A DNA stretch of 63,343 nt, counting the filler, from Bacteroidales bacterium (GTDB lineage Bacteria > Bacteroidota > Bacteroidia > Bacteroidales > CAIWKO01): assembly GCA_035389045.1 (NCBI GenBank). It is 9 parts of 9 records of this genome, joined end to end, with 100 filler letters (N's around TTAATTAATTAA, not from the genome) between each part and the next. Parts side by side here need not be neighbours in the genome. Positions count along the whole stretch, not along the records: positions 32,781 to 40,610 come from DAOORA010000111.1; 8 more parts are not named here. One strand, given 5' to 3'. Shown in pieces: positions 33,001 through 39,000 of this stretch (position 1 is the first letter of the stretch; every line of letters starts with the position of its first letter). Made by a program: the position numbers.

Positions 33001-36000
33001 CTTGTGTTGTTGGTGGTTCGTGCTGCCACCCTGAAAAAAAGTGTCAGGGTGACTGCTAATCGCCGGGTATCAGCGCGCCGAAGGCGCTCCTATGGAGAAG
33101 TCACCCCGACACTACCAAATAATACCAAATTGAAATATCAATTAGTCCAATGGGGCGTATTGATATTTCTTATTTGGTTATACCGATGATAAAAATAAAT
33201 AGTACAAACGAGTGAAGCGAAGTTTGGACTATATTATTTTTCAAATCGGTATAATCAATTCAATTTTTATCGTTGAACGAATTTACGTAAATTCATTCAA
33301 TAGATTGAACGTATTAATGTAAAAATATTCATCAAAATGATCAAATTAATGGAAAATTGTTTATTTTTGTAAAAAATTTCATAAGATGATTATTCAGCGG
33401 CCCATTCAGAAAAAAATTGAAGGAAAACTAAAATCAGGCAAGGTCTTACTATTGCTTGGCGCTAGGCGGACCGGAAAAACATTTCTGATAAAGCAGATAA
33501 TTAAAAGCCTTAATACACACAGGCTGTTGTTAAATGGAGAAGATTTTCAGGTGGCTGCAAAACTGGAAAACAAAAGTATTTCTGAGTACAAACAAATTGT
33601 TGGGAAAAACAAACTGTTAATCATTGATGAGGCTCAGAAAATTAAAGATATCGGGAGGATACTAAAAATTATGATTGATGAGATTGATGGTTTGACGATA
33701 ATGGCAACAGGCTCATCAGTATTTGATCTTTCGCAGAAACTTGGGGAGCCTTTGACGGGCAGGAATATTAATTTTAAAGTTTTCCCAATAGCACAATATG
33801 AGCTGAAGGATTTAGAGAATCCCATTGAAACCCAATCAAATCTGGAGCAGCGGCTTATTTTGGGTTCCTACCCTGAATTGTTCTCCATGTCGGGATATGC
33901 AGAAAAGCAGGAATACCTGATCGGGCTTGTAAATTCTTTTTTGCTGAAAGATATTTTAGAATTGGACAACATAAAAAACGCATCAAAAATTCTAAATATA
34001 TTACGGTTACTGGCCTTTCAGGTAGGCAGTGAGGTGTCTTTTTCTGAGATTGGGCAAAAAGTGGCATTAAGCAGAAATACAGTGGAACGATATATTGACT
34101 TGCTTGAAAAAACGTTTATAATATTCTGCTTAGGTGGCTTTAGCAAAAACTTGAGAAAAGAGGTTTCAAAAAACTCGAAATACTATTTTTGGGATAACGG
34201 TATAAGAAATGCGGTCATTTCGAATTTTAACCCATTGAGTTTAAGGAATGACGTTGGGCAATTATGGGAAAACTATATTATTTCAGAAAGATTGAAATAT
34301 CTGGCTTATCAGACGAAACCGGCCAATGTGTTTTTTTGGAGGACTTATGATCAGCAGGAAATTGATTGGGTAGAGGAAAGAGCCGGAAAGCTGTTTGCAT
34401 TTGAAATAAAATATATCAAAAACAAAGTCAAAATTCCTGAAGCCTGGAAAGAAGCTTATCCCGAATCGGAATTTTCTGTAATTAGTAAGGAAAATTATTT
34501 AGATTTTATTACCTGATAATCACCATAGCGTTTTGCCAAATCTTGCATAATAATGAAAATCAATTTTCCCCTTCAGGCCGAGGCAAAAAATTATGCCAGT
34601 AGCGGTATGACTGAGCGCTGACTTGTTCCGTTTGCAGTTCGTGCTGCCACTAAACCCCCATACCGTCACTCACCATCGCTTCAGAAATATTTTGACCCCG
34701 AATCTCTGATAAAACAATTTAAATAAGTATTTTTGACCGCCCAATAACAATTAATATATTATGAAAGAAAATTTCGATCCTAAGTATAACTACGAAGAAA
34801 CTAAGGAAACTATTGGATATGTGCCACTGAAGAAGGCCACACAGGATGATTGGACCCGTATAGGTTTTATGTCCGGTCTGGAGGTTCACCAGCAGCTCAA
34901 AACCAAAGAAAAACTCTTTTGTCATTGCCCTGCAGGTCTATATCAGAAAAAAAATCAATATGATGCCGAACTTTTGAGGCATATGCGTCCGACACTGAGC
35001 GAATTGGGCGAGTATGACGGCACCGCGCTCATGGAGTTCAAAACACGCAAGGAAATTGTATACCGCATCAAGAACGAAACCGCATGTACCTACGATGTGG
35101 ATGATACGCCGCCCTTTAAACTGAATAAAGAAGCGCTGGAATATGCACTGGAAATAGCGCTGTTATGCAAACTTAATATCGTTGGCGAAGTACATATTAC
35201 CAGGAAGCAATACCTCGACGGAAGCATACCTACCGGATTCCAGAGAACCGCGATTCTCGGGGTGGAAGGTGAATTGTCGCTGAAAAACAAGAAAGTAAGA
35301 TTGATACAGTTAAGTATTGAAGAAGATTCATGCCGCGAAATTTCGGATATCGGCCACCGGCGTGTTTATTCCACCGACCGGCTGGGCGTGCCTCTGATAG
35401 AAACAGTCACCTATCCCGATATGATCAATCCTTACGAAGTAAAAGAAGCCTGTGATTCTATCCGTTTTCTAAACCGAAGCACCGGGAAGGTCAGAACCGG
35501 CATCGGCGCCGGGCGACAGGATGTAAATGTGAGTTGCAAAGGTGGAACACGTGTGGAAATAAAAGGTGTCGCTCATACCCGGTGGATACCCAAACTCACT
35601 CATAATGAGTCGTTCCGCCAGTGGTCCTTGTTGCATATCCGAGGAATATTGAACGAAAAAATGGGCGACGGCTCATCCTGGAAAATGAACTTTAGGGAGC
35701 TGGAACTTAGAGATTTTCGTTTCTCTAACCTCCCGCTGACCGACGAAAAAAAGAATGTATATAAATACTATGCCATTAACCTTCCGGGATTTAAAAAGAT
35801 ACTTTCGCACTTTACCCAGCCCGGTAAAATGTTTGCTGATGAAATCAGCGAAAGACTGAAAGTGATCGCCTGTATTGAAACACCCAACATGACACATTCG
35901 GAAGAGTTTGTTCCCCTGGTCAGTGAAGATGATTTCTCGAACATCAGAAACCTGCTTAGCGCAAAAGATACGGATGCCCAGGTCATCATCTGGGGACCTG

Positions 36001-39000
36001 AAGCAGACATGAAAACAGCCCTGGAAACAGTGGAAGAGCGATGTCTGTGGGCGTTTAAGGGAGTTCCCAACGAAACACGTAAATCATTTGAAGACGGAAC
36101 AACAATTTTTGAACGTGTATTGCCGGGAGCAGACCGTATGTATCCTGATACGGATTCTGTGCCTATACCCTTATATGATGATTATATCCTCCACTTGAAA
36201 AAAGGCTTGCCTACGGAGGTTATCACACGTTATCTCCAATTGAAAACATGGGATATTCCGGAAGATACGTATACTTATATTTTAAAGAAAAACCTGTTCC
36301 CCATTATTGACCAGATAGTCGAGAAATACGGATATGATCCCAAACGTGTCGGAACCTTTATCGGACATACGCTGAAACATACCGAAGGCCAACATGAAGT
36401 ATCACCTTATTTTGATTATGACATGATCCGTGAGATGTTCGGTTTTATTAAGGAAAAGAAGCTCGAATTTCCCATTGCCAAGCAGATGCTGCCTGTATTA
36501 ATGATGCACCCCAAAATGGATTTTGATTCTATTTTAGCCACGATAAAATTTAAAAAGATCAACAAGGAGGAAATACTTGCCAACATTCCGTTTATGAAAG
36601 AAAAATTCCGCCAGATACGTATTTCCGAAAAGCCGGATGTGGAAATAAACTGGATCATGGGCGGCTTGCGGAAGATGGCGACAGGAAATATGAACCTCAC
36701 TGAATTAAAAAAATTAGTCGAAACAAGTAATTAATAGTTAAATATCATAACAACATGAGTGAAGATTTTTTTCAGGGATATAAAGGCGCGGCTCTTGAAA
36801 TATTGAAAAAATATAATGTACGGGTTTGGGGTCAGGCAGAAGTGGATACTACACGCGGGCAATTCAAGGGAACCGTGTTGCCTCGCGCCGAAAATGATGA
36901 CGACCAGCATATTGTCCTGAAGGTGGTCACGGGATATAACATAGGTGTTGATATAGCAACCATTCTTTCAATGAAGGAACTGGGCTATAAAAAAGCAAAT
37001 TATAAAATTCCTGAAAAAGAATTTCCCTATACGCCCGGACTACCAAAAGTAAAACTGATCGGCACCGGAGGCACTATCGCCTCGAGGCTTGATTATCGTA
37101 CCGGAGCCGTTATTCCGGCTTTTTCTCCCGGTGAATTATACGGAGCGGTTCCCGAACTTGCTGAGATTTGCAACCTGGAAACCGAAAAACTTTTTGCGGT
37201 TTTCAGTGAAAATATGGGCCCGGAGCAGTATAAAAAACTTGCCGTAGCGATAGGTCAGGAAATTGAAAAAGGTACCGACGGCATTATTATAGGCCATGGA
37301 ACGGATACCTTGCATTATACAGCTGCTGCTTTGACATTTATGGTTCAGAATCCTCCGATACCCATCGTACTTGTTGGCTCCCAAAGATCATCTGACCGGC
37401 CCAGCTCTGATGCCGCTTTGAATCTTATGCATGCAGCCACAGCTGCCGCACATGGCGATATTGCTGAAGTGATGGTATGTATGTTTGGGCCCACCTCCGA
37501 TGAATACGGTTTTTTGCATCGGGGAACCCGCGTCAGAAAAATGCATTCATCGTATCGTTCTACTTTTCGAACCCTTGGCGATATTCCCGTGGCTACCGTT
37601 ACCCGTAAAGGCGTGTTCCCGCAAAAACCAGTGTATAATCATCGCCGCCGGGACCCGGCAAATGTAAAAATAACACCTGTTTTTGAAGAAAAAGTGGGTA
37701 TGCTGTATTACTATACCAACATGCAGCCGGATATGATAGATGCCATGGTCGACAACGGTTATAAAGGTATTATTATTATTGGTACCGGACTCGGACATGT
37801 GAACAAGCCAATTTATCCGGCAATAGAAAGGGCTGTCAAAAAAGGAGTGGCAATATATATGACCGTACAGACGTTGTGGGGCTTTGTCCACATGTTCGTC
37901 TATGATACCGGTCGCGACCTGATGGCTAAAGGAATTATCCCGGCAGAAAATATGCTTCCCGAAGTGGCTTATATAAAACTGGGATGGGCCTTAGGGCAGA
38001 CCAGCGACCTGGAAAAAGTTAAAGAAATAATGCTGACACCAATAAATGATGATATCACAAAACGTGAACCCTATAACGGATACCTCATTTATCAGGGAGG
38101 GGTGAGAGAAGTCGAGGACTTCATTAAAAAGGTACACAAATAAGAACTCGTATTGGCTTGCCGGCATAAAAAAATATCTCTTTACGCCTCTGCGTCTCTG
38201 CGAGATAATAAACATATCTCTTTGCGCCTTTGCGTCTTAGCGAGAAAAAATAAACATATCTCTTTGCGTTGCGTCTCTGCGAGAAAAATCTCTTTGCGCC
38301 TTTTATGAATGTGACAGCTTCATTTTACCTGAACAACGGATAACCGGTATTTTTGGCGTTTTCAGATGTACTCGTCCCCTTTTTCTATTTTTACATCATT
38401 AACAAACTGCCGGATCTGTTGTTCGTCATTTTTACGGCATATCAACAACACGTTTCCCGACTCAACCACAATATGGTCATCCAGTCCTTGTAAGACAACG
38501 AGTTTGTTCTCCGGCATGTTCACAATGCAGTTGTGGCTGTCATACATAATAACATTTTTTCCGACTATGGCATTTCCCTTTTCATCTTTTTGCCTGTTTT
38601 CATATAAGGAGCCCCAGGTGCCCAGGTCGGACCATCCGAAATCGGAACGCAGGACATACACATTATCTGCTTTTTCCATGATGCCATAGTCAATGGAGAT
38701 GCTTCTGCAAGTGGTATACACCTGCTGTATAAATTCCGGTTCCTTATCCGTATTATATATACCCCTGCCTTTTTCAAAGGACTCTTTGATCTCCGGCAGG
38801 TGTTTTTCGAATGCCTGTAAGATACTTGATACCGACCAGATGAAAATTCCCGAATTCCATAAAAAATCACCACTTTCAAGAAATTGTTTGGCCATTTCGA
38901 GCACTGGCTTTTCCGTAAATGTCTTGACTTTTTTTATCCGTAAATCATCAGGATAGGTGTCAGTGTCTTTATATTGTATGTATCCGTAACCGGTGTCAGG

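Follow-up and report, generated by a model that had tools for sequence, protein, structure and literature searches.

A GatE-GatD gene pair in a Bacteroidales bacterium with GlnRS and without GatA or GatB: a candidate Glu-tRNA(Gln) amidotransferase beside a direct synthetase

Why should a bacterium that has GlnRS also keep both subunits of GatDE, an amidotransferase which the relevant passages of three reviews (PMC2811023, PMC2330236, PMC9499178) confine to archaea? The question arises from the survey's finding of full-length GatE and GatD at positions 34761-38143 of the window, which is the whole stretch of 63,343 nucleotides analyzed here and consists of contigs joined via N spacers. Both open reading frames were confirmed, those review passages do place GatDE in archaea only, and a literature search again turned up no publication describing GatDE from a bacterium. 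The features of the locus are listed in Table 1. The two genes are separated by a gap of 20 nt and probably form an operon of two genes encoding an active tRNA-dependent amidotransferase, a heterodimer that by analogy would be of the alpha2-beta2 type. A consensus scan upstream of gatE found 11 promoter-like sites where shuffled sequence led one to expect 9.9, a difference that is not significant.

Table 1. Features of the gatE-gatD locus, the neighbouring tRNA gene and the domains of GatE (domain boundaries are approximate and were drawn from alignments and the AlphaFold model)
Feature	Position	Strand	Description
Contig bearing gatE-gatD	32781-40610		Part of the window
gatE upstream intergenic region	34517..34760	+	Promoter-like hexamers at 34733-34762, putative only
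Half of 38-nt direct repeat	34613-34650		Upstream of gatE; repeat search
gatE	34761..36734	+	ORF, 657 aa, kinase/transamidase and tRNA-binding subunit
gatD	36755..38143	+	ORF, 462 aa, asparaginase-type glutaminase subunit with GatD_N domain
tRNA-Gln(CUG)	41450..41523	+	Next contig of the window; ARAGORN, Rfam tRNA 66.3 bits, U1-A72, 8-nt D-loop
GatE N-terminal extension	residues 1-29		Approximate
GatE cradle	residues 38-295 and 413-480		Approximate
GatE AspRS-like insertion	residues ~296-412		Approximate
GatE helical domain	residues ~481-560		Approximate
GatE YqeY-like tail	residues ~561-657		Approximate

The identity of the larger subunit was examined by profiles, alignment and structure. On TIGR00134, whose cut-off is 319.55, GatE scored 396.6 bits over positions 3-599 of the 622 in the model, reproducing the earlier value; on the second equivalog NF003107 it scored 452.7 bits, slightly below the cut-off of 456. 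It aligns full-length to archaeal GatE 2d6f_C (E 1.7e-83) and 1zq1_C, which are its best solved-structure matches, and its residues H43, E187 and E214 fall on His15, Glu157 and Glu184 of the Methanothermobacter thermautotrophicus protein, described in the part of PMC2330236 concerned as the Mg ligands of the kinase site. All three are invariant in 99/99 Bacteroidota GatE and throughout a 26-row alignment. The AlphaFold model (pLDDT 85.3, pTM 0.81) has GatE chains 1zq1_C and 2d6f_D as its closest folds, with a TM of 0.80-0.81 by target and 31-33% identity over the fold alignments to archaeal GatE, and GatB ranks behind them. Pfam GatB_N covers residues 38-476 with a profile of 277 positions, hence GatE must hold a large insert; the model folds this part as the AspRS-like insertion, which is absent from GatB, and the GAD domain (PF02938) is found in the precomputed annotation of relatives.

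Bacterial GatCAB performs the same chemistry and GatE is a paralogue of its GatB, sharing the cradle domain and the YqeY-like tail, but the glutaminase of GatCAB is the amidase GatA, whereas GatDE employs the asparaginase-type GatD and does without GatC. The reading of gatE as the GatB of a GatCAB enzyme was rejected: GatB models gave it 51-124 bits against cut-offs of 315-680, and no GatA was found in the genome. Compared with GatB, it is also two residues short at the position aligned with the NMEEG segment, a 3-10 turn according to the structural account in PMC2811023.

GatD passed TIGR02153 with 495.7 bits (cut-off 324; again the earlier value) and NF003217 with 493.5 bits (cut-off 310). 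It matches Pyrococcus abyssi GatD 1zq1_A with E 1.8e-116, the other best structure match being 2d6f_A, and carries the Pfam domains GatD_N (PF18195, 42.1 bits, cut-off 25.7), Asparaginase and Asparaginase_C. It also passed the subfamily model TIGR00519 with 376.4 bits (cut-off 260.5), as a GatD should. A stand-alone type I L-asparaginase was considered and rejected on account of the GatD_N domain and the adjoining gatE. The protein contains the motifs GTGGTIAS, HGTDT and RKMH, the threonine that we take to be the nucleophile being assigned as in the asparaginase family, and T104, T107, T183, D184 and K262 are invariant in 82/82 Bacteroidota homologues. An asparaginase-type Thr nucleophile accompanied by a Thr-Lys-Asp triad is the active site given for GatD in the corresponding section of PMC2330236.

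The pair thus shares with the archaeal enzymes of M. thermautotrophicus (PDB 2D6F, with tRNA-Gln) and P. abyssi (PDB 1ZQ1) the same two subunits and domain order, including GatD_N and the AspRS-like insertion, together with the Mg ligands, the asparaginase-type catalytic residues and HMM scores at equivalog level. By sequence, the assignment of the two genes to GatE and GatD at the family level is supported, as is their occurrence in a host that has GlnRS but neither GatA nor GatB, and the product is quite probably an active tRNA-dependent amidotransferase.

The seeming redundancy with GlnRS, and the absence of GatD from about half of the sampled Bacteroidales families, could also be explained if the pair were a leftover of a transferred operon, decaying or neutral and with no present function. 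This is very improbable and is contradicted by the conservation data. Against same-family genes gatD showed dN of 0.03-0.05 and dS of at least 1.9, with dN/dS of ~0.01-0.02 in 5/12 same-family pairs and saturated dS in the other 7; purifying selection on gatD is very strong. The catalytic residues are invariant as given above, the frames are intact, and both genes are retained even when unlinked, as in G095 and G224, where gatE lies elsewhere in the genome. Contigs of two activated-sludge RNA libraries also cover both genes at 99-100% identity, which is a weak hint of activity as DNA carry-over is possible.

The host contig has just 7.8 kb and the metagenome-assembled genome (MAG) consists of 135 contigs, so an archaeal contig placed in the wrong bin had to be considered; it has next to no probability. 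The same order gatE-gatD-manC-like-SprT-like was found inside a one-contig genome of 4.86 Mb from the same family, the G+C of 0.40-0.43 lies inside the range of 0.31-0.47 for the remaining window, and the protein falls in a bacterial clade. GatD passes its cut-off in 21/23 genomes of the host family. Contamination is refuted by these observations. The survey's statement that most of the family keeps the pair stands, with 21/23 by the GatD cut-off in place of 19/22, while its figure of about a tenth of Bacteroidales does not: a sample even over families gave 138/301 genomes (97/208 genera), the lower figure resulting from species counts weighted towards gut families. A phylum-wide sample gave 13/251 genomes, and among 14 control genomes only the 4 archaea passed, as claimed before. 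Among the listed families with three genomes in the order sample, 19/22 were all-or-none for GatD. The gene gatE adjoins gatD in 19/21 Bacteroidales loci and in 11/12 loci of other classes.

The charging enzymes of the host genome (96.3% complete, 1.65% contamination) were then compiled by profile searches, which agree with the survey on GlnRS, one GluRS, AsnRS and AspRS and on the absence of GatA and GatB, the sole match of the GatB model in the host genome being gatE, and a weak one. GatD is single-copy, GlnRS passes its equivalog cut-off with 760.6 bits, GluRS is of bacterial type, AsnRS and AspRS occur once each, and six AsnB-type asparagine synthetases are encoded. The archaeal setting, in which GlnRS would be absent and GluRS non-discriminating, differs from that of the host, which is a bacterium with GlnRS and in which the profile search found no archaeal-type GluRS partner.

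With these components, our preferred explanation, to which we give a probability of about 0.55, is that an active GatDE converts Glu-tRNA(Gln) beside GlnRS. GatE would bind the glutamylated tRNA and phosphorylate its gamma-carboxyl group using Mg-ATP, GatD would free ammonia from Gln or Asn, and GatE would then amidate the intermediate to Gln-tRNA(Gln). The enzyme would most likely have an auxiliary role, acting on Glu-tRNA(Gln) made at some level by the single GluRS, either as a second route or to rescue mischarged tRNA, for instance under a shortage of free glutamine. Such mischarging by GluRS, the substrate and the physiological role are inferred. For the substrate taken singly, Glu-tRNA(Gln) is favoured by a small degree, and the tRNA-Gln(CUG) of the window, once glutamylated, is presumed to be a substrate.

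Against this explanation, the sequence of the host GluRS gives no sign that the enzyme is non-discriminating. The equivalent of Thermus thermophilus Arg358 is Arg in 61/61 GluRS, including lineages that are necessarily non-discriminating, and no column of the GluRS alignment splits amidotransferase-bearing from amidotransferase-free genomes, the largest difference in frequency being 0.43.

GatDE could instead be the main route to Gln-tRNA(Gln), with the GlnRS homologue secondary or otherwise employed. In 20 genomes (190 pairs) the median identity was 77% for GatD, 62% for GatE and 58% for GluRS, so that across the order GatD varies less than GluRS, and in G371, from another class, glnS lies 99 bp from gatD. 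We consider this improbable, since the GlnRS equivalog cut-off is passed in 286/301 Bacteroidales genomes whether GatD is present or not, 147/301 have GlnRS alone, the host GlnRS scores highly, and the GluRS of GatDE-positive genomes has no distinguishing feature. Among 140 GatD-positive genomes, GlnRS was found in 133 and GatB in 8; two have GatB but no GlnRS and five (63-96% complete) have neither. The latter look like assembly gaps, because the same number, 5/161, lacks both among GatD-negative genomes. There is no lineage in which GatDE is clearly the sole route. GlnRS, GatB and GatD occur together in six Bacteroidales genomes and in 5/5 tested genomes of other Bacteroidota classes, therefore a requirement for Gln-tRNA(Gln) does not account for the retention of GatDE. 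The presence of GatDE is independent of the GlnRS and GatB routes, and the combination "GlnRS and no GatCAB" stressed by the survey does not hold generally for GatDE in bacteria, as GatCAB also co-occurs with it, with or without GlnRS.

The serious rival to conversion of Glu-tRNA(Gln) is a retargeted enzyme: the bacterial GatDE, or at minimum its Bacteroidales form, would apply the same kinase and amidation chemistry to an acyl-tRNA but to another substrate, or in a non-translational or conditional pathway, and would for this reason have been kept beside GlnRS and even GatCAB. The independence just described is in its favour, and so is the divergence of GatE. The Bacteroidales form adds ~28 aa at the N-terminus, and its tail motif, implicated in D-loop reading, is W[IV]MG[EQ]LxxxAxGN where archaeal and other bacterial GatE have LMGxVMKxxRG[KR]xxG. 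In the host GatE the basic loop reads KVRTG in place of archaeal KVKRG. The tail motif is derived, and the same function as in the archaeal enzyme is accordingly not guaranteed. The stem of the Bacteroidales GatE clade is long (0.61-0.87 substitutions per site), and conservation is only 47-49% in the insertion, helical and tail domains as against 77-82% in the catalytic cradle, although tRNA-binding domains are often less conserved, which by itself does not indicate a new substrate.

The tRNA side was compared with these changes. ARAGORN confirmed the survey's two tRNA-Gln with U1-A72, their anticodons being UUG and CUG, while both host tRNA-Glu start with G1 and have D-loops longer than the 8-nt D-loop of tRNA-Gln; judged by sequence, these features fit the amidotransferase recognition rules (first base pair, D-loop) as laid out in a section of PMC2330236. 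U1-A72 occurs in 8/8 aligned Bacteroidota tRNA-Gln. The same source states, in the part concerned, that archaeal GatDE recognises A1-U72 of tRNA-Gln, and the U1-A72 of the host would speak against a Glu-tRNA(Gln) role. The D-arm of tRNA-Gln is identical across lineages with either type of GatE tail, and together with U1-A72 it is unchanged in G106 and G232, which have GatCAB without GlnRS and so an obligate indirect route; this speaks for Glu-tRNA(Gln). An unchanged D-loop facing the long stem and the replacement of RG[KR] by AxGN may, like the first base pair, count against it.

Retargeting is opposed by other observations. Apart from the partner subunit, no conserved neighbour in the Bacteroidales and other-class loci suggests a different pathway, and none of the 41 tRNAs found in the host genome is unusual. 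A role on Asp-tRNA(Asn) is not needed given the six AsnB-type synthetases and AsnRS, and modelling cited in the part of PMC2330236 on this point suggests that the GatE insertion domain would clash with AspRS. Retargeting is a real possibility, but one to which we assign only a minor share, and conversion of Glu-tRNA(Gln) beside GlnRS is kept as the preferred reading.

GatCAB is regarded as the only asparagine route in Thermus and Deinococcus. In these two and in Bdellovibrio an amidotransferase likewise coexists with the direct synthetases AsnRS and GlnRS, as described in a passage of PMC4206432, and likewise seems redundant; that enzyme is GatCAB, whereas the host has six AsnB-type synthetases and GatDE, the archaeal form of which is specific for Glu-tRNA(Gln) in the account given in part of PMC2811023.

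Trees of GatE place the bacterial sequences in a single, well-supported clade over many anaerobe phyla, and its sister is a Heimdallarchaeota-labelled sequence. A recent archaeal import of gatE-gatD was rejected, as the pair sits within this large bacterial clade. A single ancient transfer from an Asgard-like archaeon most likely gave rise to the bacterial lineage, which has probably since then been handed down within, and exchanged between, anaerobic bacteria, chiefly of the FCB group. We tentatively suggest, as a less likely general idea, that GatDE is not an archaeal signature and that its bacterial form, a large and old branch sister to Asgard, is kept in many anaerobic phyla for something that GlnRS and GatCAB do not do. 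This could be a Glu-tRNA(Gln) pathway that guards fidelity or is used conditionally, or else, in Bacteroidales with its remodelled GatE tail, the amidation of another acyl-tRNA. If true, GatDE would be a third and unrecognised player in bacterial Gln-tRNA biology, and the rule that no gatCAB means no indirect pathway would fall. Family databases already label such bacterial proteins.

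The gatE and gatD open reading frames of the Bacteroidales genome lie 20 nt apart, and their products were compared with family models and solved structures. The gatE product scored 396.6 bits against TIGR00134 (cut-off 319.55; model positions 3–599 of 622), 452.7 bits against the second GatE model NF003107, slightly under its cut-off of 456, and just 51–124 bits against the GatB models; the gatD product passed both GatD equivalog cut-offs with 495.7 bits (324) and 493.5 bits (310). These scores and the lengths of both frames bear out the survey's finding that the two subunits are full-length. 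In Pfam, GatE matched GatB_N, interrupted by a large insert, and weakly a GatB_Yqey tail, and GatD matched GatD_N and both asparaginase domains. The closest solved structures for both are archaeal (2D6F of M. thermautotrophicus and 1ZQ1 of P. abyssi), and the AlphaFold model of GatE (pLDDT 85.3, pTM 0.81) found the 2D6F/1ZQ1 GatE chains as its top fold matches (TM 0.80–0.81 by target) with GatB chains behind (TM 0.55–0.73). The pair is a genuine GatDE family member that looks functional, in a domain and a genetic background where it was not expected.

Features of the gatE-gatD contig and of tRNA-Gln(CUG), as positions in the window
Feature	Position	Strand	Description
Contig carrying gatE-gatD	32781-40610		7.8-kb, bounded by N spacers
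22-nt unit (CCTCTGCGTCTCTGCGAGAAAA-like)	32781-32886		contig start; three tandem copies, 39-42 nt spacing
38-nt direct repeat, first copy	32992-33029		76% identical to second copy
ATPase gene (AAA_14/DUF4143)	33386-34516		just upstream of gatE
38-nt direct repeat, second copy	34613-34650
gatE	34761-36734	+	ORF, 657 aa; GatE equivalog
gatD	36755-38143	+	ORF, 462 aa; GatD equivalog
tRNA-Gln(CUG)	41450-41523		ARAGORN

The signs of function were sought in residues, selection and linkage. H43, E187 and E214 of GatE, the equivalents of the kinase-site Mg ligands His15, Glu157 and Glu184 described for M. thermautotrophicus (PMC2330236), are invariant in 99/99 Bacteroidota GatE, and the asparaginase-type residues T104, T107, T183, D184 and K262 of GatD are invariant in 82/82. 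Against 12 genes of the same family gatD showed dN of 0.03–0.10; dS was 1.9–4.8 in five pairs (dN/dS 0.009–0.016) and saturated in the other seven. The median identity over 20 genomes (190 pairs) was 77% for GatD, 62% for GatE and 58% for the housekeeping GluRS, and within GatE the catalytic cradle is conserved at 77–82% and the insertion, helical and tail domains at 47–49%. gatE adjoins gatD in 19/21 loci of Bacteroidales and in 11/12 from other classes, and in neither set was a conserved neighbour found besides the partner subunit; in two genomes the pair is unlinked and gatE is still kept, about 0.34 Mb off (G095) or at a distant site (G224). Two RNA libraries of activated sludge, each from a different study, contain contigs 99–100% identical to gatE and gatD; with DNA carry-over possible, they hint weakly at transcription.

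GatD passed its cut-off in 21/23 genomes of the host's family, in agreement with the earlier claim that the pair is kept in most of it. The figure of about a tenth of Bacteroidales did not hold in a sample balanced by family across the order, in which GatD was found in 138/301 genomes (97/208 genera; 115/261 high-quality genomes) and the GatDE clade in about half of the families. Among 22 listed families with three genomes each, GatD was present in 0/3 genomes of 12, in 3/3 of seven and in a mixed state in three; only about 27% all-or-none families are expected if presence is independent of family, and the trait therefore follows lineages. The phylum-wide sample gave 13/251 genomes, of which the 12 other than the host all belong to other classes, and no GatD was found in the large families sampled elsewhere in the host's class, beyond the order (0/51, 0/41, 0/17 and 0/12). 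The scan of genome contigs returned matches solely from close Bacteroidales relatives, and the order gatE, gatD, manC-like, SprT-like is common to the host's 7.8-kb contig and a one-contig 4.86-Mb genome of the same family. A mis-binned contig and a relic without function are both ruled out by the conservation and synteny data. GatDE is spread widely enough to revise its textbook distribution.

The origin of the bacterial proteins was studied with 594 GatE clusters (E up to 1e-30; 1.84 billion cluster representatives searched) in three trees, namely a FastTree of 125 rows and IQ-TREE LG+C20 trees of 59 and 46 rows; Bacteroidales GatB served as root for the first two and sequences of the Thorarchaeota group for the last. 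In all three, the window GatE belongs to a Bacteroidales clade with support 100, which is borne by a long stem (0.59–0.87) and nested in a larger clade (support 99–100). With one exception the labelled members of the larger clade are bacterial: CSSED10-310, Deltaproteobacteria (two), Aminicenantes (three), Clostridiales, Latescibacteria, Krumholzibacteria, Desulfaltia, Caldithrix and 'bacterium', together with Bacteroidota loci of other classes. The latter group with Caldithrix, Latescibacteria and Krumholzibacteria; the Bacteroidales clade is separate from them, in a polytomy. A Heimdallarchaeota-labelled cluster is sister to the bacterial clade (SH-aLRT 95), the next branches outward include Thorarchaeota- and Hodarchaeales-labelled clusters, and a Diapherotrites-labelled GatE falls in the other archaeal clade. 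These trees are of GatE alone with a poorly resolved deeper backbone, and the labels are sparse, come from MAGs and accompany just a minority of those proteins that were looked up. The simplest reading of the trees would be one old transfer from an Asgard-like archaeon to anaerobic bacteria, with the genes then inherited and exchanged between bacteria. A distance correlation between GatE and GluRS proved a weak test of vertical inheritance (Mantel r 0.39, p about 0.0005; Spearman 0.12, not significant), the signal coming from a few close pairs. The one non-bacterial label is a Thermoplasmata archaeon whose sequence sits on a 5.16-Mb contig, and GatD proteins labelled TA06, Edwardsbacteria and Syntrophothermus are 85–86% identical to the Bacteroidales form; these odd labels (P0400, P0082, P0093, P0102 and P0103) could reflect mis-binning, mislabelling or recent transfer.

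The host assembly is 96.3% complete with 1.65% contamination and holds one GatD copy. GlnRS is present (760.6 bits), no match to GatA was found in the genome and GatB gave nothing except a weak match on gatE itself, as had been reported. There is one GluRS of bacterial type and no archaeal GluRS, one AsnRS, one AspRS, and six AsnB-type asparagine synthetases with no AsnA. Both tRNA-Gln (UUG and CUG) carry the U1-A72 pair, also as claimed earlier, with an 8-nt D-loop; the two tRNA-Glu have G1 at the first position and longer D-loops. ARAGORN found 41 tRNAs in all, and none was an archaeal-like tRNA-Gln. The genome also has a tRNA-Sec (anticodon UCA; G000:C4:37479-37571), and the host therefore probably uses selenocysteine.

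The same 301 Bacteroidales genomes were profiled for GlnRS (286 pass) and GatB (17 pass) and cross-tabulated as 140 GatD-positive and 161 GatD-negative genomes.

Joint occurrence of GatD, GlnRS and GatB in the Bacteroidales sample
GatD	GlnRS	GatB	Genomes	Remark
+	+	-	127
+	+	+	6
+	-	+	2	family f82
+	-	-	5	63-96% complete
-	+	-	147
-	any	+	9	2 of 9 without GlnRS
-	-	-	5	one 100% complete

No lineage clearly dependent on GatDE alone was found among these genomes: the five candidates with GatD and neither GlnRS nor GatB are matched in number by GatD-negative genomes that have neither enzyme, and both groups are therefore best read as assembly gaps. In the Bacteroidota of other classes GlnRS and GatB both accompany GatD in 5/5 tested genomes, which together with the cross-table shows that bacterial GatDE is retained independently of GlnRS and GatCAB. 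G088, rated 100% complete, gave no match to GlnRS, GatB or GatD, so single-genome absences in these searches are unreliable. Two Bacteroidales families, f82 (G103, G232) and f85 (G106, G235), have GatB and no GlnRS and presumably use the classic indirect route, and f82 also carries GatDE, an archaeon-like pairing of GatCAB with GatDE.

The chemistry can be assigned with fair confidence by analogy with the family (PMC2330236): GatE would bind the acyl-tRNA and phosphorylate its side-chain carboxyl, GatD would hydrolyse Gln or Asn, and GatE would use the ammonia to amidate the intermediate. We infer Glu-tRNA(Gln) as the substrate with a probability of roughly 55%, because the family acts specifically on it, the host tRNA-Gln bears the features by which amidotransferases discriminate it from tRNA-Glu, the indirect route of sister lineages uses the same tRNA-Gln, and nothing points to a different partner or pathway. 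The enzyme would then assist GlnRS, by providing a second route or by rescuing mischarged tRNA. An enzyme retargeted to something else is less probable and is still a serious rival, since the occurrence of GatDE does not depend on GlnRS or GatCAB, GluRS shows no detectable sign of being non-discriminating, the host tRNA-Gln has a first base pair unlike the archaeal one and the GatE tail is remodelled. Bacteroidales GatE carries W[IV]MG[EQ]LxxxAxGN in its tail in place of the LMGxVMKxxRG[KR]xxG motif common to archaeal, other bacterial and other-class Bacteroidota GatE; it also has an N-terminal extension of about 28 aa and reads KVRTG instead of KVKRG in the basic loop, which aligns with the GatB segment that PMC2811023 ties to reading of the first base pair.

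Despite this remodelled tail, tRNA-Gln is nearly identical across all amidotransferase-bearing lineages examined, and the eight tRNA-Gln genes that were aligned (two from GlnRS-less, indirect-route lineages and three from other classes) all share U1-A72 and do not vary in the D-arm. With the window's 74-nt tRNA-Gln(CUG) as query, tRNA-Gln at 81–92% identity was found in 6/8 amidotransferase-bearing genomes, even across classes, and none in 5/5 complete Bacteroidales genomes free of GatDE and GatCAB (G051, G136, G293, G174 and G272); on the basis of this missing query match the tRNA-Gln of such genomes may have diverged, and we make no claim of it.

GluRS sequence was uninformative as a read-out of the indirect pathway. 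In 60 of the 286 GluRS matches plus the host's own (28 genomes without a GatD or GatB match vs 33 with GatD and/or GatB), the position equivalent to T. thermophilus Arg358 was Arg in 61/61, and no column separated the two groups (largest frequency difference 0.43); PMC3927822 itself cautions against this residue as an indicator. A need for the asparagine route was rejected because the host has the six AsnB-type synthetases plus AsnRS, a special tRNA substrate was not found among the 41 tRNAs, and Rfam found nothing else on the gatE-gatD contig.

GatDE is described as confined to archaea, as the survey's finding held, and as co-evolved with archaeal tRNA-Gln in the relevant passages of PMC2330236, PMC2811023 and PMC9499178, the first naming it an 'archaeal signature protein' and the second stating that it 'occurs exclusively in archaea'. 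The full-text literature, with subscription journals outside its coverage, likewise gave no report of bacterial GatDE. Public annotation pipelines already call these bacterial proteins GatD and GatE, a point the survey also had right, so the novelty lies in recognition and interpretation, not in detection. Surveys of how bacteria form Gln-tRNA read the lack of gatCAB as 'discriminating GluRS, direct pathway only'; one of them, PMC3927822, does so for Bacteroidetes, classing 12/14 as GluRS plus GlnRS without gatCAB and treating this absence as a sign that the indirect pathway is defunct. That reasoning is undercut by a conserved GatDE clade of bacteria that occurs in about half of the sampled Bacteroidales families and under labels of many other anaerobe phyla. 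The proposal that GatDE dates to LUCA is also affected, because the bacterial clade has its place next to Asgard sequences and not outside archaea. A tractable question is raised as to why two or three routes to one aminoacyl-tRNA are kept; because several GatDE carriers have complete genomes in one contig, the enzyme, GluRS and tRNA can be cloned and the physiological role of bacterial GatDE is directly testable.

Some observations were also made on gene neighbourhoods. In an other-class Bacteroidota locus (G371:C45:508058-510945; L195) glnS runs convergently towards gatD and ends 99 bp from it, in G128 (locus L145) tRNA-Gln(CUG) adjoins gltX, and in several Bacteroidales genomes glnS adjoins gltX regardless of GatDE, as judged by match coordinates. 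The tandem 22-nt copies probably caused the assembly break at the contig start. The 38-nt direct repeat brackets the ATPase gene, which suggests an inserted cassette, and in the one-contig relative G019 this position is occupied by other genes. In RNA-library runs X1 and X2 the ATPase gene has almost no contig cover and gatE and gatD are covered, a gap that proves nothing.
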